Positions 14,116 through 52,888 of a stretch of DNA of 53,002 nucleotides are shown piece after piece. This DNA is from Eubacteriales bacterium (GTDB taxonomy: Bacteria > Bacillota > Clostridia > Oscillospirales > CAG-272). Made by a program: the position numbers and the translations under genes. The first letter of the stretch is position 1; each line of letters starts with the position of its first letter. The notes under the pieces are model-generated. The model was not told where the DNA came from. It did not search any database and saw only the letters and a list, made by a program, of their open reading frames with translations. The stretch covers positions 1 through 53,002 of the forward strand of contig JAZNXP010000124.1 in NCBI GenBank assembly GCA_045593965.1, given 5' to 3'.

Positions 14116-14144
14116 TTGCCAATTTACAGATATTCAAGTAAAAT
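14116..14144 (+). promoter_or_regulatory. Putative sigma-A promoter at the head of the propeller island
   Basis: TTGCCA (14116-14121), 17-nt spacer, TAAAAT (14139-14144), about 100 nt upstream of the first lipoprotein gene. It sits inside a 457-nt AT-rich intergenic region. Confidence 0.4.
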
Positions 14145-14244
14145 ATTATATATTATAGTATATCTTTTCAAGCAATGAAAAAAAGACGGCAATGTCGGGC
14201 GGTTAAATGACAATGATGACCGTCAAAACAAGAAAGGAATTTGT

Positions 14245-15609
14245 ATGGGAAAAAACATCGCAAAAATGGCAATCTGCTTGCTTTTGTCCCTGACCTGCAT
14301 TCTCAGCGCGTGTGACAAGGGCTCGTCCGAGGATGAGCTGTTCGGCACGACCGCCGAGAAGAAAACGCAGGTGACCACGCAAGCGACCACCGAGGAGCCA
14401 AAGGCTGAGGTTCCCCATCTGGTTCCCGAGATCTTAGAAGAAAACACCAATCTGGTCATCGGACGCTTGAGCGAGCCCGTTGTCCGTCAGATCACGGATA
14501 AGATCAGCATCGATCTTCAGTATCAGGGCTGGCCCACGATCTGCGCGGGAGACGGCAACACCGTTTACGCGGCATCCTCCGTCCGCATCGGACACATCGA
14601 CCCGTTCGGCTGCATCGGCTTCTATAAGAGCGAGGACGGCGGACAGACCTGGTCGACCGTCAAGATCATTGCCGATACGCCCATCGATGACCGCGACGCG
14701 GGCATTGTTTATCTCGGTGGCGGCAAGATCCTGGTCAGCTGGTTTACGCACAACATTTCGAACTATATGCAGGGCGGACAGTATTACAATGACTGGAATA
14801 AGAAGGTCACGGATGAGCAGCGCGTTGCGGCGTTGAAGAAATTCGCCGAGCTGGATTATGCCGATCAGCAAGCGGCTTCCTACGTTATGCTCTCCAAGGA
14901 CTACGGTGAGACGTGGGATGAGCCCGTGAAGGTTCCTGTTTCCGCGCCTCACGGTCCTACCTTGATGCAGGACGGCAGAACCCTGCTTTATTTCGGAGAC
15001 CCCCACAACCCCAAGGGAATGGGCATTACCGATATGAAGCAGCACCACTACTATGCATACACCAGCCGCGATTACGGTAAGACATGGAACCGTTTTGCAG
15101 AGCTGAAGATTCCTTACACGAGCACGCAGACGTTTGACGAGCCGTATATGCTTCAGTTGCAGGACGGTACCTTCATTGCGGGTATCCGCGGTCACGTCAA
15201 CGAAGACAAAGAAGAGAACGGAAACGCCGCTTTGCGCGTCTTTATCTCGCATTCGGAGAACGGAAAGGTATGGGATGAATTCAAGGAGCTGGAAGGGACG
15301 GTCGGAACTCCTCCGCATTTCTTCCAGACAAAGGAAGGCGTTCTGATCCTTGCGTATTCTCACCGTCTTGAGCCGTGCGGCGCGCGCGGACGCATCAGCT
15401 ACGACAACGGATATACGTGGAGCGATGAATTCATCATTTCCGTTGTTGACGGCAGAAAGAGCGATGACCTCGGATATGCGTCAACTACGCAGCTGCCCGA
15501 CGGAACGCTTCTGACGGCTTACTACCAAAACTATTACTCGGGTGATAAGTATCGTTCTCTCCTCTATACCCGTTGGAGATTGGTAGATCCGAATGAAGCA
15601 ACGAAATAA
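14245..15609 (+). CDS. Lipoprotein L1: Thr-rich tether + sialidase-like (BNR/Asp-box) beta-propeller
   Basis: 454 aa. Lipobox ILSA|C. Four clear Asp-boxes: SEDGGQTW, SKDYGETW, SRDYGKTW and SYDNGYTW. Invariant family blocks are QYQGWP, SVRIGHIDP, DTPIDDRDAG, APHGP, DEPY..IR and GTPPHF. Confidence 0.8.
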   Translation: MGKNIAKMAICLLLSLTCILSACDKGSSEDELFGTTAEKKTQVTTQATTEEPKAEVPHLVPEILEENTNLVIGRLSEPVVRQITDKISIDLQYQGWPTICAGDGNTVYAASSVRIGHIDPFGCIGFYKSEDGGQTWSTVKIIADTPIDDRDAGIVYLGGGKILVSWFTHNISNYMQGGQYYNDWNKKVTDEQRVAALKKFAELDYADQQAASYVMLSKDYGETWDEPVKVPVSAPHGPTLMQDGRTLLYFGDPHNPKGMGITDMKQHHYYAYTSRDYGKTWNRFAELKIPYTSTQTFDEPYMLQLQDGTFIAGIRGHVNEDKEENGNAALRVFISHSENGKVWDEFKELEGTVGTPPHFFQTKEGVLILAYSHRLEPCGARGRISYDNGYTWSDEFIISVVDGRKSDDLGYASTTQLPDGTLLTAYYQNYYSGDKYRSLLYTRWRLVDPNEATK

Positions 15610-16975
15610 TCGGAAAACACGGTTTTTCGCGGTTCTGCTGACGTGCCTTTTGCTGTCGGCTTCCATTCTTCTCGGTGCTTGTAACGAGGGGGCGGGGGAT
15701 GACCCGCTGTTTTCCACGGAAGCGACCGCAAGAAGAACGAATGCGACACGGGCGACCTTGGCAACGGAGGCGGTTGACGATACTCCTATTCCGCACCTGA
15801 TTCCCGAAATTTTGGAAGAGAATACCAACCAAGTGATCGGGCGATTGAACACGCCCGTTGTACGGCAGATCAACAGTAAGATCGATATCAAACTTCAATA
15901 TCAGGGCTGGCCGACGGTCTGCGCGGGGGATGGAGATACGCTTTACGCAGTCTCCTCCGTCCGCCTGACGCATATCGATCCGTTCGGTTGCATCGGCTTT
16001 TACAAAAGCGAGGACGGCGGTAAGACATGGTCTGACGTCGAGATCATCGTGGATACTCCCATTGACGACCGTGACGCGGGGATCGTATATCTTGGAAATA
16101 ACCGCGTGCTCGTCAGCTGGTTCACACATGACGCTTCGAATTACATCGAGGGCGGCGAATGGTATGAGTCCTGGGCAAATCATAAGGACGTATCGAAGTC
16201 TCAACGCGATGCGGTTTTGAAAAAGCTTGCCAATCTTCCCGCCGCGGAAAAGCAGGCAGGATCGTACGTCATGCTTTCTCCCGACGGCGGAAAAACGTGG
16301 GAAATGCCCGTGCAGGTTCCCATTTCCGCACCGCACGGACCTACGCTGATGCGTGACGGAAAGACCTTGATCTATTTCGGAGATCCGCACAACCCGTCCG
16401 CCTGCGGAGAGGTCGGGCTGAACAGCAATCGGTATTACGTCTATATCAGCCCCGATTTTGGAAGGACTTGGGTGCAGAGGGCATCTCTCGGGCTTCCGAC
16501 AGTCAGTGGCTTTCGGTATGACGAGCCTCATATCCTGCAGCTGCGGGACGGCTCCTATATCGCCGCGATCCGAGGGCAAAAAATGAACGGAAGCAGCGAT
16601 TCCCTGTGTTGCTTCATCTCGCATTCGTCCGACGGGCGAAAGTGGAGCAATTTTGAAGCCTTGAAGGGAACGGTCGGCACACCTCCGCATTTCTTCCAGA
16701 CCAAGGAAGGAATTCTTGTGATCTCATATTCGTACCGTCTCGATCCGTGCGGTGCGCGCGGACGTATCAGCTACGACAACGGATATACGTGGAGCGATGA
16801 GATCATATTTTCACGGTCGGATACGCCATGGGACGGCGATCTCGGCTATGCCTCCACAACGCAGCTTTCCGACGGTACCATGATTACCGCTTACTATCAG
16901 AAAAAAGAAGAGGATACATATTGTTCGTTTCTCTTTACCCGATGGAGATTGGTAGAGGAGAACGAGGCAACGTAA
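15593..16975 (+). CDS. Lipoprotein L2, paralog of L1
   Basis: 460 aa. Lipobox LLGA|C. The start overlaps the L1 stop by 17 nt. In the 80-aa block from (I)xLQYQGWP to SWFTH, 65 of 80 residues are identical to L1 by my manual count. Confidence 0.8.
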   Translation: MKQRNNRKTRFFAVLLTCLLLSASILLGACNEGAGDDPLFSTEATARRTNATRATLATEAVDDTPIPHLIPEILEENTNQVIGRLNTPVVRQINSKIDIKLQYQGWPTVCAGDGDTLYAVSSVRLTHIDPFGCIGFYKSEDGGKTWSDVEIIVDTPIDDRDAGIVYLGNNRVLVSWFTHDASNYIEGGEWYESWANHKDVSKSQRDAVLKKLANLPAAEKQAGSYVMLSPDGGKTWEMPVQVPISAPHGPTLMRDGKTLIYFGDPHNPSACGEVGLNSNRYYVYISPDFGRTWVQRASLGLPTVSGFRYDEPHILQLRDGSYIAAIRGQKMNGSSDSLCCFISHSSDGRKWSNFEALKGTVGTPPHFFQTKEGILVISYSYRLDPCGARGRISYDNGYTWSDEIIFSRSDTPWDGDLGYASTTQLSDGTMITAYYQKKEEDTYCSFLFTRWRLVEENEAT

Positions 16976-16985
16976 AACAAAGGCA

Positions 16986-18446
16986 ATGAACCGTAACAAA
17001 AAGAAAATTTTAACCCTGCTGATCTGCATGATGCTTACCGTATCGGTATTTCTCGGCGCATGCGACAGCAACAAGCAAGGAAACAACGAGACCACCAAGG
17101 CAACGACCGAAGCGACTACGGGAGAAACCACCGAAGCAACAACAGAGACCACCGAAGTCACCACCGAAGCCACGACCGAGGCTACGACCGAGGCAACGAC
17201 GGCGGCGACCACGGCTCCACCCGAGCCCGTGGATCCATCGGAGCTTGTCAACACCCTGTTGGTGAACAGGCTGGAGATCAATCAGGCGGTCGGACATCTG
17301 AACACCCCCGTGGTACGGGAGATCGCCAACGGTGTGACGATCGATCTGCAGTATCAGGGCTGGCCGACGGTCTGCGCGGGAGACGGTAACACGCTTTATG
17401 CGGTTTCCTCCGTTCGCTTGACGCACATCGACCCCTTTGGATGCATGGGATTTTACGAAAGCCATGACGCGGGAAAAACGTGGTCCGAGGTGCGGATCAT
17501 TGTGGATACTCCCTTGGATGACCGCGATGCGGGCATCGTTTATCTCGGCGACGGAAAGATCCTTGTGAGCTGGTTCGTACATGCCGTGGACAATTACATT
17601 GAAAAAGGCGGTTGGTATTCCAACTGGTGCAACATGGTCAGCGAGGAGCAAAGGGTGACTGCTTTGGAAAAGCTGAACGGACTTTCCAAGGAAGAGAAGC
17701 GTTCCTGCTCCTACGTGATGCTTTCCAACGACTACGGCAAGACGTGGGATGAACCCACGAAGGTCCCCGTTTCCGCTCCGCACGGTCCCACGCTGATGCA
17801 GGACGGAAAGACCTTGATCTATTTCGGAGATCCGCACAATCCTTCTCAATGCGGAGAGACGCTGGAAAGCGGATATTTCTACTTCTACACCAGTACCGAT
17901 TACGGAAAAACATGGACGCGGTTTTCCCGCATCCAGACTCCGCTTTCGGTCGGAATGTATTTTGACGAGCCGCACGTGCTTCAATTGCAGGACGGTTCCT
18001 TCATCGCGGCGATCCGCGCGCAGGAGGTGGATGGAGGCGGAGATACTCTGCGGTGCTATATTTCCCGTTCCGAGAACGGACGCTCCTGGACACCTCTGAC
18101 CGCGCTTGACAAAACTGTGGGAACCCCTCCGCATCTGTTCCAATCCAAGGAAGGTGTTCTGATCCTTTCCTACGGTGACCGTGTCAACCCCTGCGGTGTG
18201 ATGATCCGCTTTAGTCTTGACGGCGGCGTAACGTGGTCTAAAAAAGAGGTTCAGCTCTGCGTTTCCGTCACTCCCTCCAACGGAGACCTCGGATATGCAT
18301 CCACCGTTCAGCTGGCGGACGGAAGCTTTATCACGACCTATTATCAGAAATACGATCAAAACGATACCTACTGTTCGCTGCTGTACACGCATTGGAGCTT
18401 CAGCGGACTGGATCGGATCGAAGAACTGTTATCCCAAGCTCAATAA
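16986..18446 (+). CDS. Lipoprotein L3, paralog of L1
   Basis: 486 aa. Lipobox FLGA|C. Long (TTEA)n tether. Same motif set as L1 (SHDAGKTW, SNDYGKTW, STDYGKTW, SLDGGVTW). Lies 10 nt after L2. Confidence 0.8.
   Translation: MNRNKKKILTLLICMMLTVSVFLGACDSNKQGNNETTKATTEATTGETTEATTETTEVTTEATTEATTEATTAATTAPPEPVDPSELVNTLLVNRLEINQAVGHLNTPVVREIANGVTIDLQYQGWPTVCAGDGNTLYAVSSVRLTHIDPFGCMGFYESHDAGKTWSEVRIIVDTPLDDRDAGIVYLGDGKILVSWFVHAVDNYIEKGGWYSNWCNMVSEEQRVTALEKLNGLSKEEKRSCSYVMLSNDYGKTWDEPTKVPVSAPHGPTLMQDGKTLIYFGDPHNPSQCGETLESGYFYFYTSTDYGKTWTRFSRIQTPLSVGMYFDEPHVLQLQDGSFIAAIRAQEVDGGGDTLRCYISRSENGRSWTPLTALDKTVGTPPHLFQSKEGVLILSYGDRVNPCGVMIRFSLDGGVTWSKKEVQLCVSVTPSNGDLGYASTVQLADGSFITTYYQKYDQNDTYCSLLYTHWSFSGLDRIEELLSQAQ
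17091..17216 (+). repeat. Imperfect 12-nt tandem repeat encoding the (T-T-E/K-A)n tether of L3
   Basis: Encodes TTKATTEATTGETTEATTETTEVTTEATTEATTEATTAATTA, from repeated accaccgaagc/acgaccgaggc units. Confidence 0.7.
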
Positions 18447-18474
18447 CAAGAATTTTTGAAAGGAATTTTTAACC

Positions 18475-19836
18475 ATGAAACGTAAGCAATTTGCGGCAAT
18501 GCTTTGCCTTCTGCTGGCATTTGTGTTCGTGCTTTCCGCTTGCGACAGCGGCTCGTCCGAGGAGGAGCTGTTTGGATCGACGGCGGCAAAAACGACCAAA
18601 GCAACGACGGCAACCACAGCTCCTCCCGTTGAGGATGACCCCATTCCCACCAACTTAACTGCCGAAATTCTGGAGTCCAATCTTCCGATCGGACATTTGA
18701 CTCCCGATAAGGCGATCACCGTTCCGATCGACGATAAGGAAAGCATCACGCTGAATTATCAGGGCTGGCCCACGATCTGCAAGGGTGAGGGCGATACGCT
18801 TTATGCCGTTTCCTCTCTCCGCATCGCACACGTCGACCCCTTCGGCGCGATCTGCTTCTATGAAAGTCACGACGGCGGTGTGACCTGGTCGGATCCCCGC
18901 ATCATCATCGATACCCCTCTGGATGACCGTGACGCGGGCGTTGTTTACCTCGGAAATAACAGATTGCTCGTTTCCTGGTTCACGCATGATACCCCCGGTT
19001 ATTTTGAAAACACCGACCCAACGTGGACGAAGTGGCACAACATGGTTTCCTCCGATCAGAAAAAGGCGTTGACAAACAAATGGAATCAGCTGGATGCAAC
19101 GCAGAGGATCGGTCAATCCTATACCGCGATCTCCACGGACGGAGGACTTACCTGGTCCGAGCCCTCTGCCGTTCCCGTAACGGCACCTCACGGTCCCACG
19201 CTCGGAAACGACGGCAGAACCCTGATGTATATCGGCGCGTTGAAAAATCCGAAATCCTGCGGCTTTGAGGATATGAAGGCTTATAACCTTTACGTGATCA
19301 AAAGCACGGACTTCGGAAAGAGCTGGAAGGTCGAGGCAGAGCTTCCTTTCCCTTATAAATCCACCAACGGAAGCGGAGAAAAATTCATTTTCGGTGAGCC
19401 TTACATTCTGCAGCTCCGTGACGGCAGCTACATTGCGGCTGCGCGCGGACAGTGGGGATATGACAATGACGCGATGCGCGTATATCTCGCGTACTCCGAT
19501 GACGGACGCAACTGGACGGATTTCAAAGAGGTGGAAGGTCTTGTCGGTGCTCCCGCGCATTTCTGCCAGACCAAATCGGGTGTTCTGATCATGTCCTATT
19601 CCTACCGCGTTTCTCCTGCAGGCTCTCGCGCACGCTTGAGCTATGACGGCGGAAAAACGTGGTCGGAGGAGATCACGCTTTGCGTTTCCGCTACGCCGAA
19701 CAACGGTGACCTTGGATATCCCTCCACGGTCGAGCTGGACGACGGCACTCTGATCACCGCGTACTATCAGCGCGTAGGGTCCGATTCGAACGCATCCTTC
19801 CTGTTCACACGCTGGAAGCTGGTGGAAGCCGAATGA
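18475..19836 (+). CDS. Lipoprotein L4, paralog of L1
   Basis: 453 aa. Lipobox VLSA|C. Blocks NYQGWPTICKGEGDTLYAVSSLRIAHVDP, SHDGGVTW, STDGGLTW, STDFGKSW and SYDGGKTW. Confidence 0.8.
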   Translation: MKRKQFAAMLCLLLAFVFVLSACDSGSSEEELFGSTAAKTTKATTATTAPPVEDDPIPTNLTAEILESNLPIGHLTPDKAITVPIDDKESITLNYQGWPTICKGEGDTLYAVSSLRIAHVDPFGAICFYESHDGGVTWSDPRIIIDTPLDDRDAGVVYLGNNRLLVSWFTHDTPGYFENTDPTWTKWHNMVSSDQKKALTNKWNQLDATQRIGQSYTAISTDGGLTWSEPSAVPVTAPHGPTLGNDGRTLMYIGALKNPKSCGFEDMKAYNLYVIKSTDFGKSWKVEAELPFPYKSTNGSGEKFIFGEPYILQLRDGSYIAAARGQWGYDNDAMRVYLAYSDDGRNWTDFKEVEGLVGAPAHFCQTKSGVLIMSYSYRVSPAGSRARLSYDGGKTWSEEITLCVSATPNNGDLGYPSTVELDDGTLITAYYQRVGSDSNASFLFTRWKLVEAE

Positions 19837-19915
19837 TCATATCGCGATAGAAGGGGGACGTTGTTCCTTCCCAACGCCGCGAACGATCTGCTTTTATCTT
19901 ACAAAGGAGATTTTT

Positions 19916-21226
19916 ATGAAACACACTTTGAAATTGATTTTGTTAGGTGTATTGGCACTCTCCATGCTTCTGTGCGCCTGCGATAATTCCTCGGACGAGA
20001 ATTTCTTCGAGAACAGCACCACGGCAAAAAAGACCACTGCGGCAACGCAGGCAACGACGGCACCGAAGCAAGAAGTCGAGATCCCGACCAACCTGACTGC
20101 GGAGATTTTTGAACACAACAAGCCCCTATCCGTTCTGACCGATAACCCTGTGGTAAGACCGATCGGAAACACGGGCGTGGATATCGAATTGACCTATCAG
20201 GCATGGCCCACGGTCTGCAAAGGAGACGGTGACACGCTTTATGCGGCATCCTCTCTGCGCCGCAATCACATCGATCCCTTTGCGGCAACCGGGTTCTACG
20301 TCAGCCATGATAACGGCAAGACATGGAGCGACGTGAAGGTCATCAATGACAGTCCCATCGACGACCGCGATACGGGTATCATTTATCTGGGTGGCGGAAA
20401 GCTGGTGGTTTCTTACTTCACCATTAGTGCAAATGATTTCAAGCCCAACGGTCAGTACGAGACGAAATGGGGTGGCTGCACCGACGAGCAGAAAAAGGCA
20501 AAGCTGAGGGAATGGAGCACCTATACCGAAGCAGAGCTTGCAGCCTTCCACGGAAGCTTCCTGCTGCTCTCCAACGATTACGGCGAGACTTGGGAAAAGG
20601 TAAAGGCACCCGTTTCCTGTCCGCACGGACCTTCGTTGATGAACGATGGCAGAACCCTGATCTATCCAGGTGTTTCCAGTACCAAGCTGTTCTTCTATAT
20701 CAGCCGTGATTTCGGCAAGAACTGGTCGCTGTATGCCGAAGTGAATATGCCCAAGCTCGATCCCGGATGCGGCTATTGGGAGCCTCACGTGATCCAGCTT
20801 TCCGACGGATCGTTCGTCGCGGGTATCCGAACGGGTGGCGATAACCGTGAGTTGGGCATTCTGATCACAACCTCGGATGATGGCAAAAACTGGACACGTC
20901 CGGAAGAGGTAGAGGGAATTGTCGGCGCACCTCCGCATTTCCTGGAATTGGATAACGGTGTGATCGTTTTGACCTTCTCTGACCGTGTCGGTCCCGACAT
21001 TGGCGCACGCGCTCGGTTGAGCTATGACAGAGGCAAGACGTGGACCGAGACCGATATCGACCTCAGCTTCCACACCAGCTCCAGAAATTCCGACCAAAGC
21101 TATCCTTCCACGGTTCAGCTGGATGACGGAAGCCTGATCACGATCTACTATCAGGCATACGCGAACGATCCAAACGCTTCCGTGCTTTATACCAGATGGC
21201 GTCTGAACGAGGTCGAGGGAGAATAA
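19916..21226 (+). CDS. Lipoprotein L5, paralog of L1
   Basis: 436 aa. Lipobox LLCA|C. Blocks TYQAWPTVCKGDGDTLYAASSLRRNHIDP, SHDNGKTW, SNDYGETW, SRDFGKNW and SYDRGKTW. AAGGAG RBS. Confidence 0.8.
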   Translation: MKHTLKLILLGVLALSMLLCACDNSSDENFFENSTTAKKTTAATQATTAPKQEVEIPTNLTAEIFEHNKPLSVLTDNPVVRPIGNTGVDIELTYQAWPTVCKGDGDTLYAASSLRRNHIDPFAATGFYVSHDNGKTWSDVKVINDSPIDDRDTGIIYLGGGKLVVSYFTISANDFKPNGQYETKWGGCTDEQKKAKLREWSTYTEAELAAFHGSFLLLSNDYGETWEKVKAPVSCPHGPSLMNDGRTLIYPGVSSTKLFFYISRDFGKNWSLYAEVNMPKLDPGCGYWEPHVIQLSDGSFVAGIRTGGDNRELGILITTSDDGKNWTRPEEVEGIVGAPPHFLELDNGVIVLTFSDRVGPDIGARARLSYDRGKTWTETDIDLSFHTSSRNSDQSYPSTVQLDDGSLITIYYQAYANDPNASVLYTRWRLNEVEGE

Positions 21227-21270: not shown

Positions 21271-21327
21271 CCCTCCGCCGTAAGCGCGACGGAGGGGAAG
21301 AAGCCCGATGCTTCCGCACGAGGAAGC
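21271..21327. repeat. Two REP-like GC hairpins in the L5-L6 spacer
   Basis: First hairpin ccctccgccg...cgacggaggg (21271-21296, one mismatch). Second hairpin gcttcc-gcacga-ggaagc (21310-21327). Same flavour as the hairpins at 1-400. Confidence 0.5.
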
Positions 21328-42954: not shown

Positions 42955-42966
42955 AGATTTTCCATT

Positions 42967-44587: not shown

Positions 44588-46018
44588 ATGGCTTGTGAGA
44601 GAAAAAAACTGACGGCGGAGATCATTAAGGATATCGGTATCATTCACCGCTTCGATCCTCCGCACAAGTATGAGATCGGAAACACGGGCGTGACCATTGA
44701 CCTGCGCTATCAGGCATGGCCCTCCGCGATGGTCGATGAGAACGGCGTCATCTATGCTTTTATCTCGGGCAGACAGAAGCACATCGACCCGTTCGGTCAG
44801 ACGTTGCTCTATAAGAGCTATGACAACGGTGACACCTGGAGCGATCCCATCATCGTCAACGACACTCCCATGGACGACCGTGACGTTGGTGTTGCATACC
44901 TTGGAAACGGTAAGATCCTGATCACCTATTTCCGCATTTCCGCATGGGGACTCATCGGCAAGGATCAGTCCTTTGTGAACGTTGAGGGCAAGGAGATCAG
45001 AGGTGGTCGTCCCGATACCAAAAACGAACAGGGCTATCACACGGACGGATACGCGAGCTGGCAAAATCCTGCGTTCTCCTCTCCCGAGCAGGTGCAGGCA
45101 GTCTTTGATTATTGGAAGACCATGACCTATGAGGAGCTGGACGGCGGCACGTGGTGCCTCACCTCCGAGGACTACGGCGAGACGTGGTCCAAGCCCATGC
45201 CCACGCCTTGCTCCACGCCTCACGGACCGATCGTTCGCAAGGACGGCTCCTTGCTCTACGTCGGACGCGGCAGAGTTGCGGGCGTTGGCGGTGACGGCAT
45301 TTACGCATTCACCTCCACCGATTTCGGAAAAAGCTGGCAGTTCCTTTCCAAGATCCACGAGAACACCTGCCTGACCTATTGCGAGCCTCACGTCGTTGAG
45401 CTGGATAGCGGCAGACTGGTCGTCGGCATCCGCGTGCAGATCCAGGATCAGACCATCGACGGTAAGCTTTATCAGGTCATCGGCTTTGATCCCACAGGCG
45501 TACCGCTTTGGGTCAACAAGGATGACGGAAGAAAATATTTCCACATCACCGAAAGCCGCGTTCCCGTTGAGGTTGAGGATCGCGCGCCGCACACCACCTA
45601 CCGCCTCTACACCTGCTTCTCGGATGATGGCGGACTGACCTGGTCTCAGCCCACGGTCGTCAGCGCAACCGACCCCGAGGGATTGGAGTCTGTTTCGGGA
45701 CAGCCCTACGGTACGCCTCCTCACCTGCTCAAGCTGGACGGCGGCGAGATCGTGATGACGTACGCGACCAGAAACTTCGATATTGGTCAGAGAGCGATCA
45801 TCAGCTACGATGACGGCAAGACTTGGGACAAGGAGATCATCCTTTGCAACAAGCCCTATGACACCGAGCCCGGCTCCCCCTATAACTATAAGCAAGGAGA
45901 CATCGGATATCCCGCAACGGTCAAGCTTGCGGACGGCAATCTGCTCACGGTTTACTATCAGGCGTATACCGATGACCGCTATTGCTCCTTCCTCTATACC
46001 AAGTGGTCTCTGAAATAA
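44588..46018 (+). CDS. S2: leaderless stand-alone G-subtype propeller, tandem duplicate of S1
   Basis: 476 aa. Starts MACERKKLTAEIIKDIGIIHRFD. About 45 nt of upstream leader, including the RBS, resemble the S1 leader. Same motif set as S1. Confidence 0.8.
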   Translation: MACERKKLTAEIIKDIGIIHRFDPPHKYEIGNTGVTIDLRYQAWPSAMVDENGVIYAFISGRQKHIDPFGQTLLYKSYDNGDTWSDPIIVNDTPMDDRDVGVAYLGNGKILITYFRISAWGLIGKDQSFVNVEGKEIRGGRPDTKNEQGYHTDGYASWQNPAFSSPEQVQAVFDYWKTMTYEELDGGTWCLTSEDYGETWSKPMPTPCSTPHGPIVRKDGSLLYVGRGRVAGVGGDGIYAFTSTDFGKSWQFLSKIHENTCLTYCEPHVVELDSGRLVVGIRVQIQDQTIDGKLYQVIGFDPTGVPLWVNKDDGRKYFHITESRVPVEVEDRAPHTTYRLYTCFSDDGGLTWSQPTVVSATDPEGLESVSGQPYGTPPHLLKLDGGEIVMTYATRNFDIGQRAIISYDDGKTWDKEIILCNKPYDTEPGSPYNYKQGDIGYPATVKLADGNLLTVYYQAYTDDRYCSFLYTKWSLK

Positions 46019-46030
46019 GTTGCATTTTGC

Positions 46031-46064
46031 AAACGCCCCGCTTTTCTAAGCGGGGCGTTTTTGC
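46031..46064 (+). terminator. Strong intrinsic terminator; first clear one since 13.8 kb
   Basis: Stem acgccccgctt (46033-46043) / aagcggggcgt (46048-46058), loop ttct, then TTTTT. Confidence 0.85.
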
Positions 46065-46209: not shown

Positions 46210-46238
46210 TTGACAACACAGAAAAAATGTGCTATACT
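46210..46238 (+). promoter_or_regulatory. Near-consensus sigma-A promoter of the A1 gene
   Basis: TTGACA (46210-46215), 17-nt spacer ending in TGc, then TATACT (46233-46238). Confidence 0.7.
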
Positions 46239-46323: not shown

Positions 46324-48834
46324 ATGAAAAAAACAGTTAGAAGCTTTTGCTTGCTGTTGGCGGCTTTGATGATCCTCACGACCGTGATCGTGACCGTTTC
46401 CGCAGAGCCCGAGGCAGCACCTGCAGACAACGGAATCATCGGCTACAGTGATTCTCTTGTCGAAAAGGTTGACTTAGCAGACATTGCCGACCTTACCACG
46501 TACGACGCAGCAAACGTTGCTGCAGCGTACAAGATCAAAGACGTTGCGGGCTACCTCAAGCTGGTAGAGATCGTCAACGCAGAGACCGCAGGCGGTAAAG
46601 TCCTCAAGGGCGTTACCATTTACCTGGAAAACGACATTGACATTTCCGAGGTTGAAGGTCAGTCTCCCATCGGTTATCTGAAGGGTTATTACGACGGTGC
46701 GAAGCATATTGAAGCGAGCGCGATCTTCGCGGCAAACCTCGACGGTCAGGGACACACCATCAGCGGTATCAACGTTCACAAGAAGATCGGTGACAATGAC
46801 CAGTTGGTTGCTTTCATCGGTTATGCAGCTGATGCTACCATCAAGAACATTAAGCTCGTTGGTACCACCCAGCAGGATGTCGGTACGTTGCCTGAAGGTT
46901 ACAAAACCGATATCGCAGGCTGCGGCGCGGTTACCGCTCAGTCCGCCAACGTAACGTTCTATAACGTTTACAACCAGATCTCCATCGTTAGCGCAAACCG
47001 TCAGGCAGGCGTATTTGCTGCAAGAGACGGCGGTCCCGTTGTGATCAAAAACTGCACCAACGTTGCAAGCTGCAAGGGTAATGATACCATTGGATTTACT
47101 GGCTTCAGAGTAAGATCTGAAATCTCCAACTGCTTCAACGCAGGAAAATTGCAGGGTCAGAAGGCAGGTGCCTTCATCGGACGTGGAACGGACAACTCCT
47201 CCGTTACCAACTGCGTCAACGTTGGTGCGATCACCAGTACCTCGACCAATCCTTCATCTTCTTATGCGGGCTTGGTAAACGTTGATACCGCCAATGCTAC
47301 CATCAAGGTTTCGAACTGCATGAACTACGGTGTTCTGACCGCTGTCACGACCGCTCTGACCAACCAGATCAACGGTACCATCGAGGCAACCGATTGCTAT
47401 GATCTCGTTGGCAAGCTCTACATCCCCGTTGTTGCTCCCGATGCAAATGCTGTTGGTTATTCCAGCGCAAGAGTTGACGCTGTTGACGTTCTTGCTCTGA
47501 CCGACATTACCACCGTTGCGGATGCTCTTACCGAGACCGCTTATAAGATCACCTCTGTTGAGGGCTTCAAGAAGCTGGATGAACTGGTATGCGCAGGTGT
47601 TAGCTTCTCCGGCGTTACCGTTTACCTTGCAAACGACGTTAACTTCGAAGGCGTTACTGACTTCTCTCCCATCGGTTGGGGCGGTCAGACCGCTGTTAAA
47701 AACAACCAGGCTCCCGCAGTCGCGTTCAACGGTACGTTCGATGGCCTTGGCAACATGGTTTCCAACGTAACTGCTGTACGCAGCGAGTCCCAGATGCTGG
47801 ATCCCAGCGATACTGCTAACTATGGTGGTATCTCCTTCTTCGGTATTCTGAACGGCGCAACCATCAAGAACTTCATCATTGATGCTTCCTGCTCCTTCAC
47901 CTATACCGCAGATCCTCACGACCACGGTTGCGCAGCTGCATTCGCATTTGCAGCACACAACACCACGATCGATAACTGCCTGAACCTTGCTTCTGTTACC
48001 AGCAGCTCTCGCTTCAGCGCAGGCTTTGTCGGACGTGTTCTCGGTTCTCTCACCATTACCAACTCCACCAACGCAGGTAAGGTTACCGGTTGCCAGAGCG
48101 TAGCAGGCTTTGCAGGCTACATTGCAGCGACCACCACCGTTACCAACTGCCGTAACATTGGCGAAATCATCTGCGCTAAGGGTTACGATGCAAACAACGC
48201 TCTCGTTGGTTCCGACCACTCCGCTGCAGGTATCGTTGCTTGGGCACGCGCACAGGTAACCATCGACGGTTGTACCAACAACGGCAACATCTCCGGTGTT
48301 GACAACGTTGCAGGTATCATCGGCGAAGTCGGTGACTCCCAGTATCAGAGCGTAAGTGTAGAAGTTAAAAACTCCTTCAACTACGGCAATCTGAGCATGG
48401 ATGATCCCAAGACCGAAAATAATAACGTTCCCGTAATGGCAACCGTAGGCGAGGTTTGGGCTGAAGTTGCTACTTCGAACTTCACCAACGAAAACTGCTT
48501 CGATCTCCGTGGCGTATATGATCTCTCCATCGGTTTGGAAGCTCTGGTGCCCGATTACAATATAATCGTTGCTCCTCCCGCATCCTCCGAGATCCCCGGT
48601 TCTTCCGAGACTCCCGGTTCTTCCGAGACTCCCGGTTCCTCCGAGACTCCTGCGACCACCACGGCAAAGACCACTGCTGCTACCACAAAGGCTACCACCA
48701 CCGCAGCTACCACGGGCGCTGACGCTCCTGCTGCTGACGATGAGGGTTGCGGTTCGACCGTGATCGGCGGCATCGCTGTGATCATGCTCGTATCCGGTGC
48801 AGCTGTTACGCTCTTCAAGAAGAAGGAAGACTGA
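46324..48834 (+). CDS. A1: secreted GLUG/beta-helix-like protein (2 modules) with Thr/Pro-rich stalk and C-terminal GCG-TM-KKKED tail
   Basis: From ORF 46210..48834. I start it at MKKTVRSFCLL (ATG 46324, AAAGGAGAAG RBS), giving 836 aa. Signal ...TVSA|EP. Modules begin IGYSDSLVEKVDL and VGYSSARVDAVDV. No propeller. The tail reads DDEGCGSTVIGGIAVIMLVSGAAVTLFKKKED. Confidence 0.75.
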   Translation: MKKTVRSFCLLLAALMILTTVIVTVSAEPEAAPADNGIIGYSDSLVEKVDLADIADLTTYDAANVAAAYKIKDVAGYLKLVEIVNAETAGGKVLKGVTIYLENDIDISEVEGQSPIGYLKGYYDGAKHIEASAIFAANLDGQGHTISGINVHKKIGDNDQLVAFIGYAADATIKNIKLVGTTQQDVGTLPEGYKTDIAGCGAVTAQSANVTFYNVYNQISIVSANRQAGVFAARDGGPVVIKNCTNVASCKGNDTIGFTGFRVRSEISNCFNAGKLQGQKAGAFIGRGTDNSSVTNCVNVGAITSTSTNPSSSYAGLVNVDTANATIKVSNCMNYGVLTAVTTALTNQINGTIEATDCYDLVGKLYIPVVAPDANAVGYSSARVDAVDVLALTDITTVADALTETAYKITSVEGFKKLDELVCAGVSFSGVTVYLANDVNFEGVTDFSPIGWGGQTAVKNNQAPAVAFNGTFDGLGNMVSNVTAVRSESQMLDPSDTANYGGISFFGILNGATIKNFIIDASCSFTYTADPHDHGCAAAFAFAAHNTTIDNCLNLASVTSSSRFSAGFVGRVLGSLTITNSTNAGKVTGCQSVAGFAGYIAATTTVTNCRNIGEIICAKGYDANNALVGSDHSAAGIVAWARAQVTIDGCTNNGNISGVDNVAGIIGEVGDSQYQSVSVEVKNSFNYGNLSMDDPKTENNNVPVMATVGEVWAEVATSNFTNENCFDLRGVYDLSIGLEALVPDYNIIVAPPASSEIPGSSETPGSSETPGSSETPATTTAKTTAATTKATTTAATTGADAPAADDEGCGSTVIGGIAVIMLVSGAAVTLFKKKED
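48583..48654 (+). repeat. 4 x 18-nt tandem repeat encoding (SSE[IT]PG)n in the A1 stalk
   Basis: tcctccgagatccccggt, tcttccgagactcccggt, tcttccgagactcccggt, tcctccgagactcctgcg. Confidence 0.85.
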
Positions 48835-48880
48835 TTCTTTAAAAGCAAACAAAGATCTCAACCGTAACGGTTGAATGATC

Positions 48881-48918
48881 CGCGGGGCACTGCGCTAACG
48901 TGCGGTGTCCCGCATATT
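48881..48918 (+). terminator. Possible weak terminator after A1
   Basis: Stem gcggggcac (48881-48889) / gtgtcccgc (48904-48912, one G-U pair) followed by atattta. The U-tract is poor. A small hairpin caaccg-taa-cggttg (48858-48872) precedes it. Confidence 0.4.
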
Positions 48919-49054
48919 TACAAAACAAATCAACTACATTTTGTAATGTTCTATACGAAATAAATCTGTTTTTTTCATGTAGCAAATGAAACGATAAGCT
49001 TGCCGAAGGGCATTTCGATAAAGTATTCCATTTTTCAAGAACAAGGAGAACAAT

Positions 49055-52000
49055 ATGAAAAAGAACGTAAAGATACTGTCACTTGTGATGGCGTTTCTGA
49101 TGATCCTCTCCGCATCGGTCATGACCGTCTTTGCAGATCTTTCTGTGCAAGAAAGTCCTGACATCGGATATCAGCAATGGCATGTGGAAAAAGTCGATCT
49201 GACCGATGTCCCCAATATTTTGGATTTTCCCGTAGCGGGGGCAACTGCGTATCAGATCACGAACGACGCGGGACTGGTGTTTCTTTCTGCGACCGTCAAT
49301 GAAGGCTTTGCCTTCGAGGGAATGAAGATCTATCTCGGTCAGGATATTGATATGGAAGATGTTACCATGGCACCCATCGGTATCCGTGAGTTCCGTTTGG
49401 ATGAAAGCGGGAATGCGATCGTACTGTATCAGGATCGCGCTTTTGCAGGTATTTTTGACGGACAGGGACACACCGTTCGGAATTTGGTGATGGACTATGA
49501 CGTGGAAGAGATCCAATCGGTCGGACTGTTCGGCAATCTTGCGGGAACGGTCAAAAATCTGAAGCTGGATTCCTCTTGCAGCATCACGTGGACGAATGAA
49601 TTTCAATCTCCCTATCGGGATTACGTTTCCGCGGGTGTTATTTCGGCGTTTTCGAATAACGCGCGGTTTTGGAATATCTATTCCGAGGCGACGCTGTTTT
49701 CCGCGGGACACGGAGCGTTGACTGCGGGACGCGGAACGGTCGATGCGGCGTATTATTGCACCAACCGCGGCGACATTACGGGCAACAATACGGCAGGCGG
49801 CGTTACGGGCTTTGACGTTGGTGGCGAGATCTTCTTCTGCGACAACTACGGCACAGTCACCGCCGATAAAGCGGCAGGCATCGTCGGACGCACCCGCAAG
49901 ACGCACGAGATCCGTTACTGTGTCAATTACGGCGAGGTGAGGGGAAGATCCTATGCGGCGGGCATCGTTTGCCTGGAGCGCAACTCGAACGTAAATCTGT
50001 ATAGTTGCATCAACTACGGTGAGATCTTGGCAAGCTCTGCCTTGATGACGTCGGGCGTGGCTTACGATTCGGGAGAGGCAAATATTATATACTCCTGCGA
50101 TTCCAATTGTAAGGATCTTTCGGGCGGCGCGGACGCAACGCTTGAGATCGTCGGCTATTCAAAGGATCACGTAGCTCCCGTTGATCTGACGGGCATCCCC
50201 GCATTGGAGCAGCTTGAGGGACTTCCCAAGGCAAGCGCTTACACAATCTCCTCGGTTGAGGGCTTTGCGGTCATGGATCAGCTCATTTCGAACAATATCG
50301 ATCCATTTAACGGCGTGACCGTTTATCTGACGCAGGACGTTGATTTCCAAGGCGTGGAGTTCTCTCCGATCGGCTGGAGCGGACAGCGTTCGACCGCGGT
50401 CAACACCGTTCCCGCAACTGCGTTCACGGGCATCTTTGACGGTCTTGGACATAAGGTCAGCAACGTCAAGGCGACGATGTCTGAATCGAACGGAACCGAC
50501 AGCACCAATTACGGCGGCGTTTCCTTCTTTGGCATTCTCAAGGGCGCGACGGTCCGCAATTTTGAGATCGATCCCACCTGTTCCTTTACCTATACGGCAG
50601 ATCCGCACGACCACGGCTGCGTGGCGGGCTTTGCCTTCGCGGCACACAATACGGTATTTGAAAACTGCATGAACGGCGCAATACTGCGCAACACCTCTCG
50701 CTTCTCGGGCGGTATCGTTGCGCGCGCACACGGCTCGCTGACGGTCAAGAATTGTACCAATACGGGTATCGTCGACGGTCGTCAGAGTGTTGCGGGCATC
50801 GTTGCCTATAACGGCGCGGCACTGACGGTGAGCAACTGTCGCAACACGGGAGAGGTGATCGGCAAGGTACACCGCACAACAAACGGCATCGTCGGCTCGG
50901 ATCATGCCGCGGCAGGCATCGTTGCGTGGTCAAGAGCCAACGTTTCGATCAAAAATTGCATCAATAACGCAGACGTTTACGGCTCGGATAACGTCGCGGG
51001 CATCATCGGTCAGATCGGTGACGGCATGAATTATTCCTTCACGGCGATCCTGACGAACAATGCCAATTACGGCCTGATCGGCTTTTACGAAATGCGAGAT
51101 ATCTACGCGATCGTTGCGCCGGAGGGAGAAATCTACGCGTTTTGTTATGTCTCCGATCTTCAGCTTTTGAACAATATTGATCTTCGCGGCGGAAATGATC
51201 CGACGTTGGGTGGAGCAACGACCCCCACCGTCACGCAAACAACAAAGCCGACGCCACCGTCGACAACACCCACCACTCCCACAGAACCGATCATACCGCC
51301 GTCTATGCGCGATGACGTTGGATATTCCGCCGACGTGATCAAGGGAGTTGATCTGGAAGGTATTACTGATCTTGCCACGGTTTCGACGGATGCGAGCGTT
51401 TTGCGAGAATCCACTTATAAGATCACCTCCGTTGAGGGCTTTGAGGTGCTGGACGCGCTGATCTCCAAGGGCGTAAGCTTCGGTTGGGTTACGGTCTATC
51501 TTGCAAATGACGTTGATTTTATCGACGTGGATGACTTTTCTCCCATCGGCTGGGCAGGGCAGACGCAGACGGCGGTGAACGTCGCTCCCAAGGTCGCCTT
51601 CAACGGCACGTTTGACGGCTTGGGACATAAGGTCAGCAACGTCATCGGCATCGCTGTGGAGTCGCATTCTCTTAACGGCGATGACACCGTCAATTATGGC
51701 GGCGTTTCCTTCTTCGGTGTCCTCAACGGCGCAAGGGTCAGGAATTTTGTGATCGATGATAGCTGTGTGTTCATGTACTTGGCAGATCCCAACGACCACG
51801 GATGCGCGGCAGGCTTTGCGTTCGCGGCGCATAACAACACGGTGTTTGAAAACTGCATGAATATGTCAACGGTCATCAATACGTCCCGTTTTTCGGGTGG
51901 GTTCGTTGCGCGGGCGTATGACGAGGTGTATTTTTTAAATTGCACCAATACGGGCATCATCGGCGCATGCCAGAACGCGGCGGGCATCGTTGCGTACTGT

Positions 52001-52834
52001 TCGGCGGAGCTGATCATGACGAATTGCCGAAACGCGGGATACGTTGAGTGCTATAAGGGTTACGGCGAATATGACGGCGGTTTGCTGGTCGGCTCGGATC
52101 ATTCCGCGGCAGGCATGGTCGGATGGTTGAGAAACGGCGGCGTGATCATGAATTGCATCAACAACGGTGAGATCTGCGGCGTGGATAACGTCGCGGGCAT
52201 TGTCGGACAGCTTGGAAACGCTTGCGGAAGCGAGATCGACGTCTATATGGAAAAGAATATCAACTACGGCTGGATCGTGTTGAGTGAGGATAGCAAGACC
52301 GAGAACGGAAACATTCCCCGCATTGCCAAGAACGGCTGCATCTGGGCGGAAAACAACGTCACGGGTTCTCTCATTGAGCAACTCAACGAGGACCTTCGCG
52401 GAGAAGAGGATCCCACGTGGGACGTTCAGATTCCTCCCGTGATCGATCCCGATAACAGCGACACGTCCACCGATCCCACACAATCCGACAACACGGAGCC
52501 GACCACCAATCCCGATGACACCGATCCGTCCACGAACACGGATCCGTCCACGAACACGGATCCCACCGTCGGAACGGATGCTTCTACCGATCCCGATGCA
52601 TCCACGGACGGTCCGACGGTAAGCGAGAGCTTGGTCACCACCGAGACGACTGCCGAGATCACGGAGCAGACCACCACGCAAGCTCCCGTCACATCGGGAA
52701 CGACGTCGGCGACTACCACGGGTGCGTCCAACGCAACCACAAACGGATGCGGCGGTACGGTTCTTGGCGGCATGGCTGTGATCCTGCTCGTATCGGGCGC
52801 GGCTGTGACGGTATTGAAAAAGAAAGAGGACTGA
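49055..52834 (+). CDS. A2: secreted GLUG/beta-helix-like protein (3 modules) with Thr/Pro/Asp-rich linkers and the same GCG-TM-KKKED tail
   Basis: 1259 aa. Signal ...TVFA|DL. Modules begin IGYQQWHVEKVDL, VGYSKDHVAPVDL and VGYSADVIKGVDL. The internal linker is TTPTVTQTTKPTPPSTTPTTPTEP. The tail reads NGCGGTVLGGMAVILLVSGAAVTVLKKKED. Modules 2 and 3 resemble A1 module 2 (FTYTADPHDHGC[AV]A[AG]FAFAAHN). Confidence 0.75.
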   Translation: MKKNVKILSLVMAFLMILSASVMTVFADLSVQESPDIGYQQWHVEKVDLTDVPNILDFPVAGATAYQITNDAGLVFLSATVNEGFAFEGMKIYLGQDIDMEDVTMAPIGIREFRLDESGNAIVLYQDRAFAGIFDGQGHTVRNLVMDYDVEEIQSVGLFGNLAGTVKNLKLDSSCSITWTNEFQSPYRDYVSAGVISAFSNNARFWNIYSEATLFSAGHGALTAGRGTVDAAYYCTNRGDITGNNTAGGVTGFDVGGEIFFCDNYGTVTADKAAGIVGRTRKTHEIRYCVNYGEVRGRSYAAGIVCLERNSNVNLYSCINYGEILASSALMTSGVAYDSGEANIIYSCDSNCKDLSGGADATLEIVGYSKDHVAPVDLTGIPALEQLEGLPKASAYTISSVEGFAVMDQLISNNIDPFNGVTVYLTQDVDFQGVEFSPIGWSGQRSTAVNTVPATAFTGIFDGLGHKVSNVKATMSESNGTDSTNYGGVSFFGILKGATVRNFEIDPTCSFTYTADPHDHGCVAGFAFAAHNTVFENCMNGAILRNTSRFSGGIVARAHGSLTVKNCTNTGIVDGRQSVAGIVAYNGAALTVSNCRNTGEVIGKVHRTTNGIVGSDHAAAGIVAWSRANVSIKNCINNADVYGSDNVAGIIGQIGDGMNYSFTAILTNNANYGLIGFYEMRDIYAIVAPEGEIYAFCYVSDLQLLNNIDLRGGNDPTLGGATTPTVTQTTKPTPPSTTPTTPTEPIIPPSMRDDVGYSADVIKGVDLEGITDLATVSTDASVLRESTYKITSVEGFEVLDALISKGVSFGWVTVYLANDVDFIDVDDFSPIGWAGQTQTAVNVAPKVAFNGTFDGLGHKVSNVIGIAVESHSLNGDDTVNYGGVSFFGVLNGARVRNFVIDDSCVFMYLADPNDHGCAAGFAFAAHNNTVFENCMNMSTVINTSRFSGGFVARAYDEVYFLNCTNTGIIGACQNAAGIVAYCSAELIMTNCRNAGYVECYKGYGEYDGGLLVGSDHSAAGMVGWLRNGGVIMNCINNGEICGVDNVAGIVGQLGNACGSEIDVYMEKNINYGWIVLSEDSKTENGNIPRIAKNGCIWAENNVTGSLIEQLNEDLRGEEDPTWDVQIPPVIDPDNSDTSTDPTQSDNTEPTTNPDDTDPSTNTDPSTNTDPTVGTDASTDPDASTDGPTVSESLVTTETTAEITEQTTTQAPVTSGTTSATTTGASNATTNGCGGTVLGGMAVILLVSGAAVTVLKKKED
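52523..52576 (+). repeat. 18-nt tandem repeat (2 perfect + 1 degenerate unit) encoding DPSTNT in the A2 stalk
   Basis: gatccgtccacgaacacg occurs twice (52523-52558), followed by gatcccaccgtcggaacg. Confidence 0.8.
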
Positions 52835-52854
52835 CGTTCTCTTCTGACATCTGA

Positions 52855-52888
52855 AAAAAGGCATCGCGCTATGCGCGATGCCTTTTGA
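52855..52888 (+). terminator. Intrinsic terminator after A2 (end of island)
   Basis: Stem ggcatcgcgc (52860-52869) / gcgcgatgcc (52873-52882), loop tat, an A-run before and TTTT after. Confidence 0.85.

Follow-up and report, generated by a model that had tools for sequence, protein, structure and literature searches.

Enzymes of the GH33 group, among them the sialidases NanA and NanB of S. pneumoniae and those of P. acnes and M. viridifaciens, together with KDNases and a pseudaminidase, are built on a six-bladed propeller with Asp-boxes, and both features are found again in the propellers described here. The closest relative of these propellers is nevertheless an uncharacterized structure, Dfer_1899 of Dyadobacter fermentans (5HX0), and not any characterized GH33 enzyme. 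It is the only solved structure in their clade, a single-domain protein of a Bacteroidota soil or plant bacterium that came from structural genomics, and since Dfer_1899 is itself without known function, no function can be transferred from it. A further parallel is offered by BT1013 of Bacteroides thetaiotaomicron, in which a GH78 rhamnosidase and a Kdo hydrolase are joined in one protein that acts on chain C of rhamnogalacturonan II, or RG-II (PMC13501991). The locus compared with these systems is a block of 15 consecutive co-oriented genes, 14245-52834 (~39 kb, plus strand), in a window of 53,002 nucleotides, the whole stretch of DNA that was analyzed, from an uncultured Clostridia bacterium of the gut. 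It is a probable sugar-cleaving apparatus whose target may differ from ordinary sialic acid.

The features of the block are collected in Table 1. An earlier note on this DNA had described an uninterrupted run of 15 plus-strand genes, a composition like that of the flanks, and a lack of nan genes, sortase and ABC permease; the run is confirmed, GC is equal in block and flanks, and none of those functions turned up in the window genes that were submitted to a Pfam scan. More broadly, the window holds no transporter and no catabolic pathway. The two strong terminators that it placed after g14 and g16 are present, but weaker hairpins also occur, at 21271-21296 and at about 48881-48915. The promoter-like site ahead of g1 sits 3' of the terminator of mgsA (13404-13787) and of an AT-rich spacer of ~400 nt. 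A GH78 alpha-L-rhamnosidase gene (9031-11367, minus strand), accompanied by AraC regulators, lies ~3 kb upstream of the block.

Table 1. Genes and signals of the propeller block, in window coordinates.
Feature	Position	Strand	Basis or remark
Promoter-like site TTGCCA-17-TAAAAT	14116..14144	+	5' of first gene g1
g1 lipoprotein: lipobox LSAC, Thr-rich linker, propeller	14245..15609	+	Pfam BNR_2 E 1e-13, alignment
g2 lipoprotein propeller	15593..16975	+	64% identity to g1
g3 lipoprotein propeller, long TTEATT-type linker	16986..18446	+	Pfam, alignment
g4 lipoprotein propeller	18475..19836	+	Pfam, alignment
g5 lipoprotein propeller	19916..21226	+	76% identity to L001 orthologue
g6/7 leaderless propeller, 1-nt deletion near 21719	21382..22589	+	alignment
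g8 lipoprotein propeller, likely start MKFKN...	22631..24088	+	Pfam, alignment
g9 498-aa lipoprotein, divergent carbohydrate solute-binding-protein-like	24160..25656	+	homologues, profile, synteny
g10 signal peptide, 4 beta-helix modules, ~130-aa linker region, C-terminal propeller; 1956 aa	25725..31595	+	
g11 architecture as g10; 1890 aa	31680..37352	+	
g12 architecture as g10; 1838 aa	37438..42954	+	
g13 leaderless 477-aa propeller with extra inserts; sequence used for model	43082..44515	+	
g14 leaderless 476-aa propeller	44588..46018	+	91% identity to L017 orthologue
Intrinsic terminator hairpin, then T run	46036..46058	+	
Strong promoter-like site TTGACA-17-TATACT, TG upstream	46210..46238	+	5' of g15
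g15 signal peptide, 2 beta-helix modules, Ser/Thr/Pro linker, C-terminal transmembrane anchor (...KKKED)	46324..48834	+	
g16 signal peptide, 3 beta-helix modules, Thr/Pro/Asp linkers, C-terminal transmembrane anchor	49055..52834	+	
Intrinsic terminator hairpin	52860..52890	+	3' of g16

One propeller domain of ~360-470 aa recurs 12 times in the block (tblastn, E 1e-26 to 0), with Pfam BNR_2 above its gathering score in 12/12 copies and BNR/Asp-box matches in every copy. This agrees with the count of 12 made earlier, and in the alignment all the motif blocks listed at that time are found in each of the 12, in unchanged order. Localization signals are readable directly in the protein sequences. 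They divide the copies into six lipoproteins, three fusions and three leaderless proteins, in place of the seven, three and two proposed before, because the copy at g6/7 is leaderless and carries a 1-nt frameshift; with the frameshift repaired, its product and an intact 402-aa orthologue from GCA_054278435.1 share 90.5% identity. The giant proteins do reach 1838-1956 aa when they are read from their likely starts.

The suggestion that these domains adopt a sialidase-type fold is supported. An AF2 model of g13 (pLDDT 92.9) has the six-bladed catalytic beta-propeller of GH33, and a Foldseek search with it returned 5HX0 as the top match (E 3e-19, target TM-score 0.76), followed by GH33 sialidases (E 1e-13 to 1e-11, with a probability of 1.0 to many GH33 structures), KDNases and a pseudaminidase. 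The Asp-box repeats, S-x-D-x-G-x-T-W, are recognized both by Pfam and in the alignment. The family profile matches 5HX0 at E 1e-31 and any sialidase at 1e-15 or weaker, and identity to the GH33 sialidases is 13-18% in alignments. The significant profile match, the common signature motifs and the top Foldseek match together place the propellers in a Dfer_1899/5HX0-like BNR_2 clade; the motifs E-x15-R, G-x-P-x-H, Y-x-x-R, D-L-G-Y-P and Y-Y are common to both, and Dfer_1899 likewise departs from RIP, with FP / R...H-V-D-P in its place.

The active site is partly that of GH33 and partly rebuilt. Conservation was scored over 146 sequences, comprising 145 diverse family members and g13, at most about 50% identical to one another. 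In keeping with part of the residue order invoked in the earlier note, the Glu-x15-Arg motif, the third Arg and the GY motif of the nucleophile can be matched without a shift to NanB and to the sialidase of P. acnes: E263 and R279 align with NanB E541 and R557, R394 aligns with an Arg of the P. acnes enzyme, and G-Y442-P aligns with its G-Y-T motif (7LBU). By sequence alignment the Tyr nucleophile and its Glu partner are thus retained (Y442 in 142/146, E263 in 143/146), and so are the second and third arginines of the triad, R279 (143/146) and R394 (141/146). The first arginine is not. The propeller Q[GA]WP aligns with NanA YRIP, and the RIP position is Arg in 0/146 sequences, being Gly in 92 and Ala in 47; the residue previously taken for the first triad Arg aligns instead with NanA R366. 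The acid/base Asp, which GH33 enzymes carry on a loop some 25 residues beyond the RIP Arg, is absent from its canonical site, where P68 aligns with NanA D372 and the adjoining residue 67 is Cys in 93/146; D96, D97 or D99 is a possible alternative acid. On our interpretation of a weak local alignment, VYYQ corresponds to NanA ILYE, so that the Glu stabilizing the first Arg is mostly replaced by Gln (Gln in 95/146, Glu in 7/146). Other residues are fixed instead, namely R62, H65, D96-D-R98-D99, P-H212-G, P-P-H378 and Y-Y458-Q; conservation is 141-144 of the 146 at each of R62, H65, D96, R98, D99, H212, E263, R279, R394, Y442 and Y458. The catalytic set of GH33 is therefore incomplete, and with RIP Arg, partner Glu and acid/base Asp gone, sialidase activity is not to be assumed.

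In g10-g12 the propeller is fused to a chain of about 1,450 aa made of four GLUG-type beta-helix modules. The modules of the window fall below the Pfam GLUG (PF07581) cut-off of 20.5 bits, with best values of E 0.14 (13.1 bits) and 0.36 (11.8 bits), and they are assigned to this group because their homologues carry PF07581 (12 of 22) and the fold is common to them. A modeled module (pLDDT 94.1) is a right-handed beta-helix that best matches BACOVA_03286 (3N6Z) and then the N-terminal domains of streptococcal and Gemella IgA1 metalloproteases (TM-score 0.5-0.6), which differ in that the module is here repeated 2-4 times in a row and joined to a propeller and not to a protease. The GLUG part of the proposed "GLUG stalk proteins" thus stands as a fold, although not at the Pfam threshold for the modules themselves. 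A display of enzymes on stalks at a distance from the cell is not supported: g10-g12 have a cleavable-type signal peptide only, with no detectable anchor, and "stalk" is therefore unproven. The stalk-only proteins g15 and g16 are anchored as had been claimed, through a C-terminal transmembrane segment.

The remaining member of the block, g9, gave no match in a Pfam scan, but 6/29 of its homologues have precomputed PF13416 or PF01547 matches (SBP_bac_8/SBP_bac_1), and its family profile finds the sugar-binding protein AraN in the PDB (E 4e-4). Described before as an orphan binding lipoprotein, it does resemble a divergent sugar-binding protein but is no orphan, for members of its family lie beside propellers or beta-helix proteins at six other loci (our L001, L007-L010 and L012). 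No permease or ATPase gene adjoins the g9 family in the window or at any syntenic locus that was examined; at L012 the place is taken by an MFS gene, in a unit that runs AraC, binding-protein-like, propeller, propeller, MFS.

The propeller family is a large one, taking in 1,148 clusters (50% identity) at E <= 1e-30, and consists mostly of leaderless proteins of about 360 aa, in heterogeneous neighborhoods. Some members are fused to GH20, GH36 or GH88 domains or, by a weak, sub-threshold match, to a GHL10-like region; adjoining genes include GH43, GH2 and GH78. A NanA-like aldolase/lyase lies upstream of a 363-aa member in L009, the only such case in about nine neighborhoods examined. The locus type has parallels: GCA_054278435.1 has the same gene order, GCA_017502365.1 carries 12 or more propellers in tandem, and similar arrays occur in other Clostridia MAGs, several from ruminant guts, those named as ruminant hindgut being roe deer caecum and colon. 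The proposal of in-situ expansion holds in part, because g1-g4 resemble one another more than any of them resembles an orthologue. The array shows old paralogues with one-to-one orthologues alongside recent local duplications with gene-conversion tracts, and g10/g11 form a mosaic in which module 1 is 77-100% identical and the propeller 45-57%.

The reading that we favor, at a probability of roughly 0.55, is that of a glycosidase locus that is typical of an uncultured Clostridia lineage, distributes its products over several locations, draws on a separate GH33-related clade and probably acts on an acidic sugar. It builds on the observed gene order, domain content, folds, residue conservation and synteny. 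With the Tyr/Glu pair and two arginines kept and other residues fixed, the propellers are most likely retaining exo-glycosidases for such a sugar, predicted to be ulosonic-type or otherwise carboxylated and perhaps different from paralogue to paralogue; given the loss of one triad arginine, a non-carboxylated substrate could equally be involved. Six of the putative enzymes would be tethered to the membrane as lipoproteins with Thr-rich linkers, three would be secreted at the end of four-module GLUG-type rods, and three would be cytoplasmic and act on fragments whose import we infer. The conserved partners g9 and the beta-helix-only g15 and g16 may serve to capture glycan and to keep the secreted rods at the surface, a retention of g10-g12 that we purely infer.

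That the propellers are ordinary exo-alpha-sialidases, stripping Neu5Ac and Neu5Gc caps from host mucin and glycoproteins through paralogues for different linkages and O-acetylated variants, is doubtful. The sialidase fold with four catalytic residues in register speaks for it, and so do the NCBI name of the relatives, "exo-alpha-sialidase", the lyase in L009, the animal-hindgut origin of related MAG loci and the fusions to GH20 and GH36, enzymes that often act after sialidases on host glycans. The name is an automatic annotation, however, the lyase is a single instance, and no nan genes are present in the window or in the syntenic contig of GCA_054278435.1. The RIP arginine is missing in all 146 sequences, Gln and Pro occupy the Arg1-partner and acid/base positions, and the profile fits the uncharacterized 5HX0 far better than any sialidase.

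Distinctly improbable is a specificity, in parallel with BT1013, for acidic sugars of plants or microbes, ulosonic ones among them, such as the Kdo or Dha of RG-II or the sugars of bacterial capsule and LPS. The upstream GH78 gene with its AraC regulators, the pairing of just such an enzyme with a Kdo hydrolase in BT1013, the GH43 and melibiase-like genes found in L007 and L009 alongside those for binding-protein-like and beta-helix proteins, and the herbivore-gut origin of related loci would all suit it, yet at least 12 paralogues seem excessive for a rare plant sugar, and the GH78 gene is on the opposite strand, outside the conserved block. An adhesin array of non-catalytic glycan-binding propellers is very improbable indeed. 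Loss of catalytic residues can accompany a change from enzyme to lectin, and canonical ones are lost here, in a locus whose GLUG-type modules resemble surface proteins and the IgA1-protease N-terminal domain; against this, about a dozen polar or charged pocket-type residues are kept in 141-144/146, the GH20, GH36 and GH88 fusions point to enzymes, and adhesion is unlikely for a family of which most members are leaderless and of about 360 aa.

The favored glycosidase reading could be extended to combine a new GH specificity, a new Gram-positive display system and g9 as a glycan-capture partner, a combination that we regard as a long shot. The propellers would then possibly form a new CAZy family or GH33 subfamily, binding a non-Neu5Ac sugar in a pocket rebuilt around R62, H65, DDRD, PHG and PPH in place of the RIP arginine; g15 and g16 would hold g10-g12 at the cell surface by rod-to-rod contacts, and g9 would capture glycan and not serve as a transporter subunit. 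Thousands of such proteins are labeled "exo-alpha-sialidase" in databases, and counts of gut sialidases and mucin degradation are built on these labels. If the substrate differs across at least 1,148 clusters at 50% identity, Clostridia sialidase counts are inflated, and a sizeable enzyme family with a solved structure would become a well-defined target, for which expression could easily start with the leaderless, well-modeled g13. The locus is likewise a test case for the display of large enzymes in wall-bearing Firmicutes without sortase or cohesin systems and for the evolution of tandem paralogue arrays.

Set beside the known systems, the locus resembles Gram-positive polysaccharide-utilization loci and Sus-like systems in its co-oriented surface glycosidases, its sugar-binding lipoprotein, its nearby AraC regulators and a staging of enzymes across extracellular, membrane and cytoplasmic sites. 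It differs from them in lacking an ABC permease, or any other transporter, within the block, in deploying one catalytic family 12 times where they mix GH families, and in using beta-helix rod proteins in place of CBM, cohesin or SLH display. From the GH33 sialidases the propellers are set apart by Gly or Ala for the RIP Arg, Gln for its partner Glu and Pro for the acid/base Asp, by additional invariant His, Asp and Arg, and by the lack of a CBM40, and from Dfer_1899 by the lipoprotein forms, beta-helix fusions and tandem array that it does not have. With BT1013, compared here by description only, the locus shares a GH78 enzyme near a sialidase-superfamily enzyme (PMC13501991), the two being here unfused and encoded on opposite strands.

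It is clear that the cluster is laid out much as the earlier note had read it: gene calling in the window, a complete MAG contig of 53,002 bp, places every substantial gene of 14245-52834 on the + strand, the GC content of the cluster is that of its flanks, and a tblastn search with the leaderless propeller g13 as query returns 12 sites encoding the one repeated domain. Pfam BNR_2 is matched by 12/12 copies above the gathering score (E 3e-8 to 1e-22), and a 12-way alignment contains all the motif blocks that had been listed, in the order given. The total of 12 stands and the division into seven lipoproteins, three fusions and two leaderless copies does not; the actual split is six lipoproteins (g1-g5 and g8), three giant fusions (g10, g11 and g12, whose 1956, 1890 and 1838 aa from the likely starts agree with the sizes first stated) and three leaderless proteins, the additional one being g6/7 (21382-22589). 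This copy carries a 1-nt deletion near 21719 (within 21712-21725), apparently CCC to CC, and since an intact 402-aa orthologue, 90.5% identical to the repaired g6/7, is found in GCA_054278435.1, the frameshift is explained either by very recent pseudogenisation or by a mistake in the assembly.

Two strong terminators had been placed in the cluster and both are present, each a hairpin with a T run (46036-46058 and 52860-52890), to which weaker hairpins in the g5-g6 spacer and at ~48881-48915 have to be added. The T run of the hairpin in the g5-g6 spacer lies on the minus strand only, where there is no gene to terminate, and the hairpin may serve in the processing or stabilisation of RNA inside a long transcript. 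The two TTGACA-17-TATACT promoter-like sites are near-identical, and the regulon may continue with another unit past the contig end. Upstream of the cluster, the nucleoside-hydrolase-like protein matches IU_nuc_hydro at E 8e-23, far under the NCBIfam equivalog cut-offs. The 598-aa lipoprotein was not counted as a thirteenth propeller (BNR_2 E 0.008; only 6% probability in hhalign against the propeller profile) and could be either a highly diverged propeller or something unrelated.

Coordinates of transcription signals, linkers and neighbouring genes in the window
Feature	Position	Remarks
Two AraC-family regulators and divergent nucleoside-hydrolase-like protein	3487-4296; 11469-12218 (-); 12329-13282	flank GH78, upstream of cluster
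598-aa lipoprotein	7205-9001	- strand; lipobox LFAC, Thr-rich linker, directly downstream of GH78 gene
GH78 rhamnosidase	9031-11367	- strand
Strong promoter-like site	14116	
Low-complexity linker, g3	17060-17230	approximate
Hairpin, 10 bp, GC-rich	21271-21296	g5-g6 spacer
Low-complexity linker, g8	22700-22880	approximate
Strong promoter-like site, TTGACA-17-TATACT	46210-46238	upstream TG
Low-complexity linker, g15	48590-48760	approximate
Low-complexity linker, g16	52330-52740	approximate
Strong promoter-like site, TTGACA-17-TATACT	52940-52968	upstream TG; after g16 terminator, 35 nt from contig end

The sialidase-type fold that had been proposed for the propellers is matched in structure prediction, though the first-ranked structure is 5HX0, that of the uncharacterised protein Dfer_1899 of Dyadobacter fermentans (E 3e-19, target TM-score 0.76), when an AlphaFold2 model of g13 built from 78 homologues (mean pLDDT 92.9) is compared with the PDB by Foldseek. 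Next come GH33 sialidases, KDNases and a Pseudomonas pseudaminidase, with 12-15% identity and E values of 1e-13 to 1e-11. The profile of the propeller family matches 5HX0 at E 1e-31, any sialidase at 1e-15 or weaker and a GH93 arabinanase at 1e-9; g13 as a single sequence finds PDB matches at Asp-box level only and exceeds no cut-off in the NCBIfam scan. The family is large, with 1,148 clusters (50% identity) matching at E <= 1e-30, and most of its members are leaderless proteins of ~360 aa named 'exo-alpha-sialidase' by NCBI. A literature search on 5HX0 and Dfer_1899 found no relevant description, and in searches on new sialidase-like families and on GLUG surface proteins neither the clade nor the locus type is described.

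GH33 is defined by an arginine triad, a tyrosine nucleophile with its glutamate and an acid/base residue (PMC10017367 and general family knowledge), and of its defining features four are present in the clade and three are missing. By alignment, E263 and R279 (g13 numbering) are in register with E541 and R557 of the Streptococcus pneumoniae sialidase NanB; in the P. acnes sialidase, the in-register counterparts of R394 and G-Y442-P are the Arg and the nucleophile motif G-Y-T. The 'Y-R-I-P' of NanA, however, lies opposite 'Q-[GA]-W-P' in the propellers, so the RIP arginine is missing, and the first Arg of the propeller motifs does not align with the triad arginine as had been supposed, R62 and H65 aligning with NanA R366 and H369. 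The NanA acid/base D372 falls opposite P68, and 'I-L-Y-E' of NanA corresponds to 'V-Y-Y-Q' as read from a weak local alignment, so that the Glu holding the first arginine would be Gln. In a census of 146 sequences (g13 and 145 representatives of the family, mutually no more than ~50% identical) the RIP position is Gly in 92/146, Ala in 47/146 and Arg in 0/146, and residue 459 is Gln in 95/146 and Glu in only 7/146; R62, H65, D96, R98, D99, H212, E263, R279, R394, Y442 and Y458 are each retained in 141-144 of the 146. The clade thus appears to be a GH33 relative with a rebuilt pocket rather than a demonstrable sialidase, and the two kept arginines and the Tyr/Glu pair would favour a carboxylated sugar and a retaining mechanism.

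The rods of the giant proteins are built from a module of ~310-350 aa present in 17 copies, four in each of g10-g12, two in g15 and three in g16, and in 16/17 of these F-x-G-x-[FL]-[DN]-G-x-G is followed by N-x-G...AGG coils. A model made from the 17 copies (pLDDT 94.1) shows a small helical cap followed by a right-handed beta-helix, with its best PDB match in 3N6Z, a 'putative IgA1 protease' of B. ovatus (E 3e-6, TM-score 0.56-0.62), and further matches in the N-terminal domains of streptococcal and Gemella IgA1 proteases. Pfam GLUG is carried by 12 of 22 database homologues of one module, and the window's own modules remain below the GLUG cut-off; predicted fold and remote homology, and not a direct Pfam match, thus support calling them 'GLUG-type beta-helix'. 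The C-termini of g15 and g16, with a Ser/Thr/Pro-rich linker, a single hydrophobic segment and KKKED, indicate a putative membrane anchor. Giants g10-g12 show a cleavable-type signal peptide only and no anchor for the proposed display of enzymes far from the cell on stalks. In g10 and g12, Pfam finds nothing significant in the region that links modules to propeller. In g3, g8, g15 and g16 the anchors are set apart from the folded domains by long linkers of Thr/Glu/Ala, Thr/Pro or Ser/Thr/Pro, for example with TTEATT repeats, which are possible O-glycosylation sites or wall-spanning spacers.

The lipoprotein g9 has a lipobox and itself matches nothing in Pfam; SBP_bac_1 or SBP_bac_8 matches are precomputed for 6 of 29 homologues, and searched as a family profile it matches AraN, an arabino-oligosaccharide-binding protein, at E 4e-4. 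In an evolutionary sense it is not the orphan it had been called. A genome scan for relatives, using an alignment of closer sequences, places the family immediately upstream of genes for beta-helix-module proteins, in some cases along with GH43, in MAGs from the caecum and colon of roe deer and in another Clostridia MAG. In locus L012 the family belongs to a unit of the order AraC / SBP-like / propeller / propeller / MFS. No ABC permease lies beside the g9 family in any locus examined.

The gene order of the window recurs in GCA_054278435.1, where at least seven lipoprotein propellers, an SBP-like gene and giant beta-helix-propeller proteins are joined by three leaderless propellers of 476-477 aa and three beta-helix-only proteins, then unrelated housekeeping genes. 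GCA_017502365.1 (L015 1-17398, JAFVVD010000002.1) has at least 12 tandem propeller genes on one strand within 17 kb, several without a precomputed Pfam match, yet matching g13 at E 1e-48 to 1e-74. Orthologue identities are 91% for g14, 90.5% for g6/7, 76% for g5, 72% for g8 and 62% for the g10 C-terminal domain, whereas g1-g4 are 48-64% identical among themselves and 44-46% to any gene of the GCA_054278435.1 relative. With clear orthologues for some copies and g1-g4 mutually closest, the array is a mixture of old, maintained paralogues and recent local duplications, and the in-situ expansion suggested earlier is supported in part, by g1-g4. Module 1 is 77-100% identical between g10 and g11, with a 140-nt exact DNA match (26202-26341 = 32136-32275) in genes elsewhere ~71-75% identical, module 4 plus linker is 67-88% and the propellers are 45-57% identical; this mosaic suggests divergence of the heads alongside gene conversion or recombination in the rod parts.

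Taken together, these data describe what is probably a conserved, lineage-typical glycan-processing locus, composed of a distinct GH33-related propeller at three predicted cellular sites, GLUG-type beta-helix rods and an SBP-like lipoprotein. The readings of the propellers as sialidases, of g10-g12 as stalks and of g9 as an uptake receptor are unproven. Such a locus would be of interest for enzyme discovery and for correcting the 'sialidase' annotation in gut Clostridia. The substrate clues are mixed. Among P0256, P0278, P0281 and P0300, family propellers are fused to GH20 (beta-hexosaminidase), GH36 (melibiase) and GH88 (unsaturated glucuronyl hydrolase), and also to a region whose GHL10 match is weak and below threshold. 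The GH20, GH36 and GH88 fusions point together with an aldolase of locus L009 to host-type glycans or ulosonic acids. L009 (5776-9571; MAG E0_LS__bin154, CALXUY010000007.1) contains a divergent AraC, then the aldolase immediately upstream of a 363-aa propeller, and a g9-like lipoprotein; the best NCBIfam match of the aldolase is N-acetylneuraminate lyase (217 bits against a cut-off of 281), and this is the only neighbourhood seen with an ulosonic-acid-type catabolic gene, those of the ~360-aa relatives P0101, P0111 and P0041 being uninformative for pathway. The window's GH78 and the GH43 and melibiase-like genes present in L007 and L009 point to plant glycans. For these, a precedent is BT1013 (PMC13501991), a fusion of GH78 with a Kdo hydrolase whose target is RG-II chain C, whereas in the window a separate GH78 lies near the propellers.
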